From IMG/VR virus record IMGVR_UViG_2695420380_000004: a stretch of 8,070 nt of DNA, one strand, 5' to 3'. This DNA is from a virus. Taxonomy: Duplodnaviria > Heunggongvirae > Uroviricota > Caudoviricetes. Positions 3,001 to 6,000 of the stretch are shown piece after piece (the stretch's first letter is position 1; every line of letters begins with the position of its first letter). The position numbers are program-made.

Positions 3001-6000
3001 TTCTGTACGGAATGGCAAGTGGCGGTTAATTTATTCAGGGGAAGGCTGTATGGGAAAAGGTGGCGGTAAGGCACACACGCCTCGTGAGGCGAAGGATAAT
3101 CTCAAATCCACGCAGATGATGAGCGTGATTGATGCGATTGGTGAGGGACTGATAGAAGGTCCGGTGAAGGGACTGCAGAGTATCCTGGTGAACAAAACCC
3201 CGCTGACGGACACGGACGGTAATCCCGTGATACACGGTGTGACGGCGGTCTGACGCGCCGGGGAGCAGGAGCAGACACCACCGGAAGGCTTTGAGTCCTC
3301 CGGTGCTGAAACCGGACTGGGCGTGGAAGTGACGAAGGCAAAACCGGTGACGCGCACCATTACGTCCGCGAACATTGACCGCCTGCGGGTTACCTTCGGG
3401 GTGCAGTCACTGGTGCAGACCACGTCAAAGGGTGACCGAAACCCGACATCCGTCCGCCTGCTGATTCAGTTACAGCGTAACGGTAACTGGGTGACAGAAA
3501 AGGATGTCACCATTAACGGCAAGACCACCTCGCAGTTTCTGGCGTCGGTGATTCTGGATAATCTGCCTCCCCGTCCTTTTAACATCCGGATGGTCCGGGA
3601 GACAGCGGACAGCACCACGGACCAGCTGCAGAATAAGACGCTGTGGTCGTCATACACCGAAATCATCGATGTGAAACAGTGCTACCCGAACACGGCCATT
3701 GTGGGGCTGCAGGTGGATGCGGAGCAGTTCGGCGGCCAGCAGATGACGGTGAACTACCATATCCGCGGTCGCATCATCCAGGTGCCGTCAAACTATGACC
3801 CGGAAAAACGCACGTACAGTGGTATCTGGGACGGCAGCCTGAAACCGGCATACAGCAACAATCCGGCCTGGTGTCTGTGGGACATGCTGACTCACCCGCG
3901 CTACGGCATGGGAAAACGTCTGGGGGCGGCGGATGTGGACAAGTGGGCGCTGTATGCCATCGGGCAGTACTGCGACCAGACGGTCCCGGATAGTTTCGGG
4001 GAGACCGAGCCGCGGATGACCTTCAATGCGTACCTGGCACAACAGCGTAAGGCATGGGACGTGCTCAGTGATTTCTGCTCGGCGATGCGCTGTATGCCGG
4101 TATGGAACGGCCAGACGCTGACGTTTGTTCAGGACCGCCCGTCGGATGTGGTGTGGCCGTACACCAACAGCGATGTGGTGGTGGATGATAACGGCGTGGG
4201 TTTCCGCTACAGCTTCAGTGCCCTGAAGGACCGGCACACGGCGGTGGAGGTGAATTATACCGACCCGCAGAACGGCTGGCAGACCTCCACGGAACTGGTG
4301 GAAGACCCGGAAGCCATACTGCGCTACGGACGCAACCTGCTGAAGATGGACGCGTTCGGCTGTACCAGCCGCGGTCAGGCCCACCGTGCCGGACTGTGGG
4401 TGATAAAGACCGAACTGCTGGAAACGCAGACGGTGGATTTCACGCTCGGGTCTCAGGGGCTGCGGCACACACCCGGTGACATCATTGAAATCTGTGATAA
4501 CGACTATGCCGGGACCCTGACCGGCGGACGTGTCCTGTCCATTGATGCTGCCACCCGCACTCTGACGCTGGACCGTGAAGTGACACTTCCGGAGACCGGT
4601 GCCGCCACGGTGAACCTGATTAACGGCAGCGGTAAGCCGGTGAGTGTGGACATCACCGAACACCCCGCGCCGGACCGGATACAGGTCAGTACCCTGCCTG
4701 ATGGTGTGGAGACATACGGGGTGTGGGGACTCTCCCTGCCGTCACTGCGCCGTCGCCTGTTCCGCTGTGTCTCCGTCCGGGAAAACACGGACGGCACCTT
4801 TGCCATCACGGCGGTGCAGCACGTACTGGAAAAAGAAGCCATCGTGGATAACGGTGCCCGCTTTGAGCCGCAGTCAGGTTCCCTGAACAGCGTCATCCCA
4901 CCGGCAGTGCAGCACCTGACGGCCAGTATCTGGCGCAGGCGAAATGGGACACGCCGCGGGTGGTGAAGGGTGTGCGCTTCAGTCTGCGCCTGACCAGTGG
5001 TAAGGGAACGGATGCCAGACTGGTGACCACCGCCATCACCGCAGACACGGAGCACCGTTTCAGCGGCCTGCCGCTCGGGGAATACACCCTGACGGTGCGG
5101 GCGATAAACAGCTATGGCCAGCAGGGTGAACCTGCCACCACCACCTTCCGGATTGCCGCACCGGCAGCACCGTCGCGGATTGAGCTGACGCCGGGCTATT
5201 TTCAGATAACCGCCACGCCGCATCTTGCGGTTTATGATCCGACGGTACAGTTTGAGTTCTGGTTCTCGGAAAAGCGGATTGCGGATATCAGGCAGGTTGA
5301 AACCACAGCACGCTATCTTGGCACGGCGCTGTACTGGATAGCCGCCAGTATCAATATCAAACCGGGCCATGATTATTATTTTTACGTTCGCAGTGTGAAC
5401 ACCGTTGGCAAATCGGCATTCGTGGAGGCTGTTGGTCAGCCGAGTGATGATGCATCCGGTTATCTGGATTTTTTCAAAGGCGAGATAGGGAAAACCCATC
5501 TGGCTCAGGAGCTGTGGACGCAGATTGATAACGGTCAGCTTGCGCCTGACCTGGCTGAAATCAGGACGTCCATTACGGATGTCAGCAATGAAATCACGCA
5601 GACTGTCAATAAGAAACTGAAAGACCAGAGTGCGGCAATCCAGCAGATACAGAAGGTTCAGGTTGATACAAATAATAACCTGAACAGCATGTGGGCTGTG
5701 AAGCTGCAGCAGATGCAGGACGGACGCCTTTATATCGCGGGTATTGGTGCCGGTATTGAGAACACCCCTGACGGCATGCAGAGTCAGGTGCTGCTGGCGG
5801 CGGACAGGATTGCGATGGTTAATCCTGCGAATGGCAACACAAAACCGATGTTTGTTGGTCAGGGCGATCAGATATTCATGAACGACGTGTTCCTGAAACG
5901 CCTGACGGCCCCCACCATTACCAGCGGTGGAAATCCATCGGCATTTTCCCTGACTCCGGACGGAAAGCTGACCGCTAAAAATGCGGATATCAGTGGCAGT

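Follow-up and report, generated by a model that had tools for sequence, protein, structure and literature searches.

The DNA analysed here, hereafter the window, is a stretch of 8,070 nucleotides (nt) from IMG/VR virus record IMGVR_UViG_2695420380_000004 (Caudoviricetes), and it includes the tail module (H', M, L, K, I, J, lom, stf) belonging to a defective lambda-like prophage. The J gene of the module, which encodes the tip attachment and host specificity protein (gpJ in phage lambda), is a pseudogene of the lambda gpJ family and not a functional member. It extends over 3050..6519 (plus strand, as do all the J features given below) and is broken into three open reading frames (ORFs) at 3050-3253 (67 amino acids, aa), 3323-4966 (547 aa) and 4960-6519 (519 aa). 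The single continuous J ORF of about 1130-1160 codons is absent: the frame stops at codon 68 and is shifted after codon 624, where 22 nt are missing. This deletion is genuine and inherited, as it is found in every Shigella sonnei locus examined, and in the collections searched it is confined to that species, apart from one 67-aa product named after Escherichia coli. The whole is best explained, with high confidence, by an inherited J pseudogene with two independent lesions, a nonsense codon and a 22-nt deletion between direct repeats, for the latter of which slipped-strand mispairing is the likeliest origin.

The frames around the break were obtained by translating window positions 4700-5100 in three frames, using lambda J (NC_001416) as comparison sequence, and the anatomy of the deletion comes from a nucleotide alignment with J of E. 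coli E2348/69, a gene for 1157 aa that is annotated 'phage attachment tail tip protein J'. Over 191 aligned bases the two differ by one substitution and by a single gap, whose length is exactly 22 nt. In the intact gene the sequence is CAG CAC CTG ACG GTG GAG GTG AGC GCA GCT GAC GGC CAG TAT, which can be laid out as CAC-CTGACGG-TGGAGGTGAGCGCAG-CTGACGG-CCAG, and the window has CAC-CTGACGG-CCAG. The loss consists of one CTGACGG copy and the 15-nt spacer TGGAGGTGAGCGCAG, so that 7 + 15 = 22 nt is also the period of the repeat. The junction is the sole retained CTGACGG copy at 4916..4922, as placed by alignment with intact relatives; the breakpoint may fall anywhere inside this 7-bp repeat. Extended by the two preceding bases, the repeat becomes a 9/10 match (CAxCTGACGG). 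The two-copy configuration is present in three E. coli relatives, namely E2348/69 and two close relatives (loci L002 and L003).

At the protein level, the deletion costs J residues V625-D631 and a base of the G632 codon, all within its first Ig-like domain (Pfam Ig_J, which spans residues 609-712 of the intact protein). The upstream frame, which has the phase of the J start at 3050, runs through 14 wrong codons after the junction before TGA 4964-4966; this out-of-frame tail of the upstream fragment occupies 4923..4966, the fusion alanine codon lying at 4922-4924. J homology resumes at G632-Q633-Y634 right after the junction, in the -1 frame. The latter opens at 4867, behind a stop at 4864-4866, and forms the downstream J frame (4867..6519, supported by tblastn, translation and Pfam), whose first start-type codons, GTG 4960 and GTG 4963, overlap the upstream TGA. 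A first-pass annotation of the site, made from the sequence alone, had already placed this TGA and the opening of the -1 frame, and translation bears out all its frame coordinates. The deletion that it put at about 22 nt is exactly of that length, and the lambda residues that it gave between HLTA and the following tyrosine agree with lambda J. One refinement applies: the alanine of HLTA is a fusion codon made by the junction (ACG|GCC) and not the homologue of lambda's.

The surrounding sequence is common in E. coli. When 701 nt around the site were used as query, about 3,500 E. coli genomes and 188 phage records matched most of this stretch, and the full-length matches listed span 723 or 726 bases, never 701. 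With some 3,500 full-length matches in E. coli, all the listed ones longer by the 22 bases, the deletion is no chance feature.

The other lesion is a nonsense codon, TGA at 3251..3253 replacing the TGG (Trp68) of relatives, and it is present in every related locus covering the site. The first-pass annotation had presented the frameshift as a second lesion beside such a codon; the change from TGG to TGA is confirmed, and tblastn of the window found no frame break in J other than these two. Truncated by the nonsense codon, the 5' end gives a 67-aa product that has been recorded for 551 contigs (633 index blocks); the exact 547-aa middle fragment, out-of-frame tail included, has been recorded for 62 contigs, and the sources name both products S. 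sonnei. In one source the identical 67-aa sequence is called 'host specificity protein J [Escherichia coli]', and at least one record labelled E. coli may carry the W68* allele. Junction and TGA occur together in 20 of the 20 loci fetched, half of them through the 67-aa product and half through the 547-aa product (10 each), as well as in the IMG/VR prophage contigs that cover both sites, which were reached by a search for the junction pattern. The identical junction was seen in loci L005-L025 and L029-L033. Loci with both lesions include the closed chromosomes CP022672, CP026802, CP060117, CP032523, CP061367, CP029794 and CP064376, the first three of which are S. sonnei strain 866 (PMC6128377), ATCC 29930 (PMC9430107) and UKMCC1015 (bioRxiv 10.1101/2020.12.08.416974), respectively.

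These loci decide on the most mundane reading of the frameshift, that of a sequencing or assembly error in a low-quality scaffolded draft whose real gene is intact. The window corresponds to the whole scaffold CXCT01000170.1 of the S. sonnei draft assembly GCA_001249045.1, as identified by exact-product look-up, and its proteins are named S. sonnei by the source databases. This scaffold contains two mis-sized runs of N (800-882 and 2505-2945), and the 3' part of its J looks chimeric, both of which would be in keeping with an error. Yet all the related assemblies examined share this exact junction, among them closed chromosomes produced by other laboratories; over 2946-5213 the window agrees base for base with locus L007 (UGZB01000001.1, a 4.96-Mb contig); and a loss of 22 nt is untypical of base-calling errors. 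Since closed genomes have the same junction, the error reading is rejected, and its probability is negligible. The expectation of the first-pass annotation, that an intact J product was unlikely unless both lesions were sequencing errors, stands at its stronger end: both are real, and they co-occur in all the retrieved loci that cover both sites.

The lesions were also sought outside S. sonnei, using 40-mers centred on each of them, which can seed a match only if the lesion itself is present. Neither had a match in 5,426 complete E. coli genomes (RefSeq), in which an 81-mer across the junction gave only two-piece matches spanning 103 nt. The junction 40-mer had no match in 50,697 phage records either, all the full-length phage matches being at least 22 bases longer. 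An origin of the allele by acquisition from E. coli or phages is rejected on these negative matches. The junction pattern returned nothing among the GTDB species representatives, which is the expected result if S. sonnei is not a separate species representative there. A relative in which an intact J shares this junction in frame, the sort of gene that the first-pass annotation had set against its own claim, was looked for in the complete E. coli genomes, the GTDB species representatives and the phage records, and none was found. A literature search for an earlier description of this S. sonnei J pseudogene yielded nothing specific, and the J fragments are already deposited as separate 'host specificity protein' entries for the species.

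The assignment to the gpJ family relies on gene position, similarity and domain content. J comes after M, L, K and I and before lom and stf, which is the placement of gpJ in lambda (tblastn and annotations). The intact J of E. coli O111:H21 15A aligns by tblastn in two pieces, residues 1-627 at 3050-4930 in frame 2 and residues 628-1156 at 4909-6513 in frame 1. The Pfam domains of gpJ follow the order FNIII-A_GpJ, Phage-tail_3, Ig_J, Ig_J_second, Phage_Tail_Tip and Ig_GpJ_C; the intact J of E2348/69 has all six, and the solved lambda J structures (8IYK, 8IYL, 8K35, 8XCG and 8XCI) match the intact relative. In the window, the 547-aa fragment holds the first two of these domains and the 519-aa fragment a partial Ig_J (profile positions 38-104 only) together with the last three.

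Translation from the J start stops at codon 68. With read-through of this codon, the frame would be lost after codon 624 and end 14 codons further on, and the distal 45% of J, to which the fibre and the receptor-binding domain belong, is out of frame. Lambda J is an essential protein of the tail tip, where it recognizes the host and its receptor. Because of this essentiality, the prophage should be unable to make infectious particles with its own J, and we infer a loss of J function that would leave it defective for the production of such particles. The TGA of codon 68 is followed by C (position 3254). In E. coli, stops in the context UGA-C are comparatively leaky, and tRNA-Trp reading through this one would give back the original residue; owing to the downstream frameshift, this read-through is irrelevant to function. 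The tail genes next to J are intact and share 98.8-100% identity with those of E. coli, which fits a recent decay.

The two overlapping frames might also be understood as functional recoding, a programmed -1 frameshift or transcriptional slippage through which full-length J would still be made. The overlap of 100 nt (4867-4966) leaves room for such a shift, but it contains neither an X XXY YYZ heptamer nor a homopolymer of 5 or more, and both versions of this mechanism are rejected on that account. Moreover, seven residues of a conserved Ig-like domain are gone, the upstream nonsense codon breaks the gene regardless, and the arrangement is found in no phage record and in no complete E. coli genome, so that recoding has next to no probability. 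The first-pass annotation had reported no obvious slippery motif. This holds for heptamers and homopolymers in the overlap, but the CTGACGG direct repeat, which is visible only in the intact relatives, had escaped it.

A more limited possibility is that the distal ORF is expressed on its own. The sequence GTGGTGA at 4960-4966, in which GTG GTG overlaps TGG TGA, might allow termination at the upstream TGA and reinitiation at GTG 4960 or 4963 (GUGGUGA in the transcript). If this were true, the second Ig-like domain would be made together with the fibre and receptor-binding domain as a free fragment, which might attach to the outer-membrane receptor and hinder infection by related phages. However, the two GTG codons simply encode the Val-Val of ordinary J (PRVVKGV), and the middle fragment could itself be translated only if ribosomes restarted beyond codon 68. 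The overlap is in all likelihood coincidental, and separate expression of the distal ORF appears highly improbable.

Concerning the origin of the deletion, a length equal to the period of a short direct repeat, with one copy left behind, is the signature of slipped-strand mispairing according to classical studies of deletions in E. coli. Both elements of this signature are present in J: the lost segment is bracketed by the repeat, whose period of 22 nt equals the deletion, and a single copy remains. The probability of a 7-nt match at a random junction is about 6e-5. Under the proposed mechanism, the nascent strand would copy the first CTGACGG during replication and then re-pair with the second one, 22 nt downstream, after which the loop would be lost together with one repeat copy and the 15-nt spacer. 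Two further deletions in these prophages have the same form. In the J gene of ATCC 29930 (L014) and of L011, 17 nt have been lost between two copies of GGTGTGG, and the intact site, GGTGTGG-AGACATACGG-GGTGTGG, is preserved in the window at 4703..4726. In the window's lom, 83 nt have been lost between two CTGGCG copies, the retained copy lying at 7061-7066. We infer replication slippage as the deletion route.

Each of these parallel cases has its own particulars. The 17-nt deletion is a third J lesion in an S. sonnei sub-lineage; its repeat reaches 10/11 bases when the flanks are included, and it shortens the middle fragment to 503 aa. After the 83-nt deletion, lom retains 160 of its 199 residues, and the new frame is closed by TGA 7070-7072. 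Records of exactly this 160-aa product come from no more than four short contigs, and the lom junction was also found in 10 IMG/VR contigs.

Several points weigh against an inherited slippage pseudogene or temper it. Among the loci retrieved, none has only one of the two J lesions, from which their order could have been read. Only three of the closed chromosomes are linked to S. sonnei by papers, the others being linked by the protein names of the sources. The intact 60-nt segment forms no significant hairpin joining the repeats, as it folds no better as DNA than its shuffles (z = -0.7), and slippage assisted by a hairpin is rejected. The deletion is present in none of the many E. coli genomes that have the same repeat configuration, which implies that the site is no recurrent hotspot. 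Finally, microhomology-mediated end joining after a break would leave the same junction as slippage.

The last point leads to the main alternative for the route itself, in which a double-strand break was repaired by microhomology-mediated end joining or single-strand annealing, with loss of the 22 nt. Either process would be expected to leave a single copy of the 7-bp microhomology, as would replication slippage. Nevertheless, for deletions between closely spaced repeats E. coli genetics favours RecA-independent replication slippage, and a repair origin of the J deletion is accordingly considered unlikely.

Slippage in J can be discussed independently of the 3' half of the gene, whose history is probably different. 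Two J alleles were compared: allele A is the J with both lesions from closed S. sonnei genomes and allele B is the J of a second prophage. Against L007, the window has no mismatch over 2946-5213 and then 45 mismatches over 5214-6062; against the closed S. sonnei genomes, it has no match at the nucleotide level over 6063-6501, and divergence extends to lom and stf. Contigs L036-L039 and L043 contain allele B, whose 5' part has only about 77% identity with the window and whose 3' part has about 99% identity with window positions 5146-8070, lom deletion included. The window follows allele A at 5169 and 5171, where it differs from L036 and L043, and allele B from 5214, so that mismatch maps place the crossover in a zone of 42 nt that is identical in both alleles (5172..5213). 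Sister drafts are joined at this place in ways that contradict one another: in L017 an N run precedes the A-type 3' J sequence, which forms a piece of its own, L009 has an extra J segment that is 97% identical to both alleles and scaffolded in series behind single Ns, and in L020 there is a break at window position 5228. The window's contig is the sole recorded source of the hybrid 519-aa product. The join between the alleles is probably an assembly chimera, with some room left for a real recombinant in this strain. The finding of the deletion is unaffected by this chimera because it lies in the part that is identical to closed genomes. Observations made downstream of about 5213 should not be assigned to the same gene history, and the 3' half of J, lom and stf are probably those of another prophage. 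The first-pass annotation had missed both that the window is a scaffold with two N runs and that the 3' part of its J comes from another allele.

The remaining genes were located by tblastn of the annotated proteins of O111:H21 15A against the window. The C-terminus of the tape-measure protein extends to 155, followed by M (155-484, 100% identical), L (484-1274, 100% identical and interrupted only by an N run), K (1285-2028, 99.6% identical) and I, which starts at 2025, is cut by the other N run and has a protein 98.8% identical to its counterpart. Behind J come lom (6590-7072) and, from 7171, the N-terminus of the side tail fibre. The scaffold was built from three contigs. The run at 800-882 (83 N) has a duplicated TGGTCCGCC on both flanks, and relatives are continuous there, from which it follows that the true contig ends overlap by 9 nt. 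The run at 2505-2945 amounts to 441 N against 341 nt in closed genomes and stands in for the 3' end of I and the I-J spacer. The ORF calls at 465-1364 (minus strand), 1926-2954 (plus), 2272-3018 (minus), 2460-3074 (minus) and 2476-3069 (plus) were rejected as artefacts because they cross the N runs.

Other features of the module concern the sequences between genes. The spacing between I and J is about 340 nt in these prophages (L007 5556-5896; L016 2406-2747), compared with 60 nt in lambda; one gene call puts a 113-aa ORF in this stretch, for which there is no Pfam match. GC-rich, terminator-like hairpins with T runs are located directly 3' of J (6542-6559) and of lom (7133-7154); three terminator-like sites were found within 6400-7300, 1.0 being expected from shuffles. 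There are also signs of strain-specific decay elsewhere in the module. The tape-measure gene is split into parts of 428 and 385 aa in L010 (CP029794; 376-3303), and an IS3-family transposase is present in the stf region of L012 (10665-11821) and L018 (7392-7644), which correspond to CP064376 and CP060117.

Compared with lambda gpJ, the J of the window shares its gene position after M-L-K-I and before lom and stf, its six Pfam domains, in equal order once the fragments are joined, and its homology around the break (PPAVQHLT...Y..A.WDTP.VVKGV). It differs in the lack of a continuous ORF, owing to the stop at codon 68 and the 22-nt deletion of codons 625-632. Moreover, the window allele is only distantly lambda-like in nucleotides, and lambda is devoid of the CTGACGG direct repeat. 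The closest likeness is to intact gpJ genes of E. coli prophages (E2348/69, WP_000514675.1; O111:H21 15A, WP_000514738.1), from which the window differs, gap aside, by one substitution in 191 bases, whereas those genes are whole (1157 aa), with the 15-nt spacer between two repeat copies. Spontaneous deletions between short direct repeats were classically described for E. coli lacI. The J deletion resembles them in that its length equals the repeat period and one copy is kept, a pattern that recurs in the two further prophage deletions, but it is a natural lesion found in all the S. sonnei loci examined and not an experimentally selected one. Seventeen prophages, several of them remnants, have been reported in S. 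sonnei strain 866 (PMC6128377). As in other Shigella pseudogenes and cryptic prophages, a prophage structural gene has here received several inactivating lesions, to which strain-specific hits are added; the J lesions are nevertheless small point and slippage events rather than the insertions of IS elements that are usually emphasised.

The case is one of ordinary gene decay in a cryptic prophage, an example of a well-known process. It provides a clean natural instance of deletions between direct repeats, with little significance beyond bookkeeping. The junction could nonetheless serve as a species- or lineage-diagnostic marker, together with the W68* codon and, for the ATCC 29930 group, the 17-nt deletion. 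The apparent frameshift in J is not an error to be corrected but a true, lineage-wide marker of a decaying lambda-like prophage in S. sonnei.

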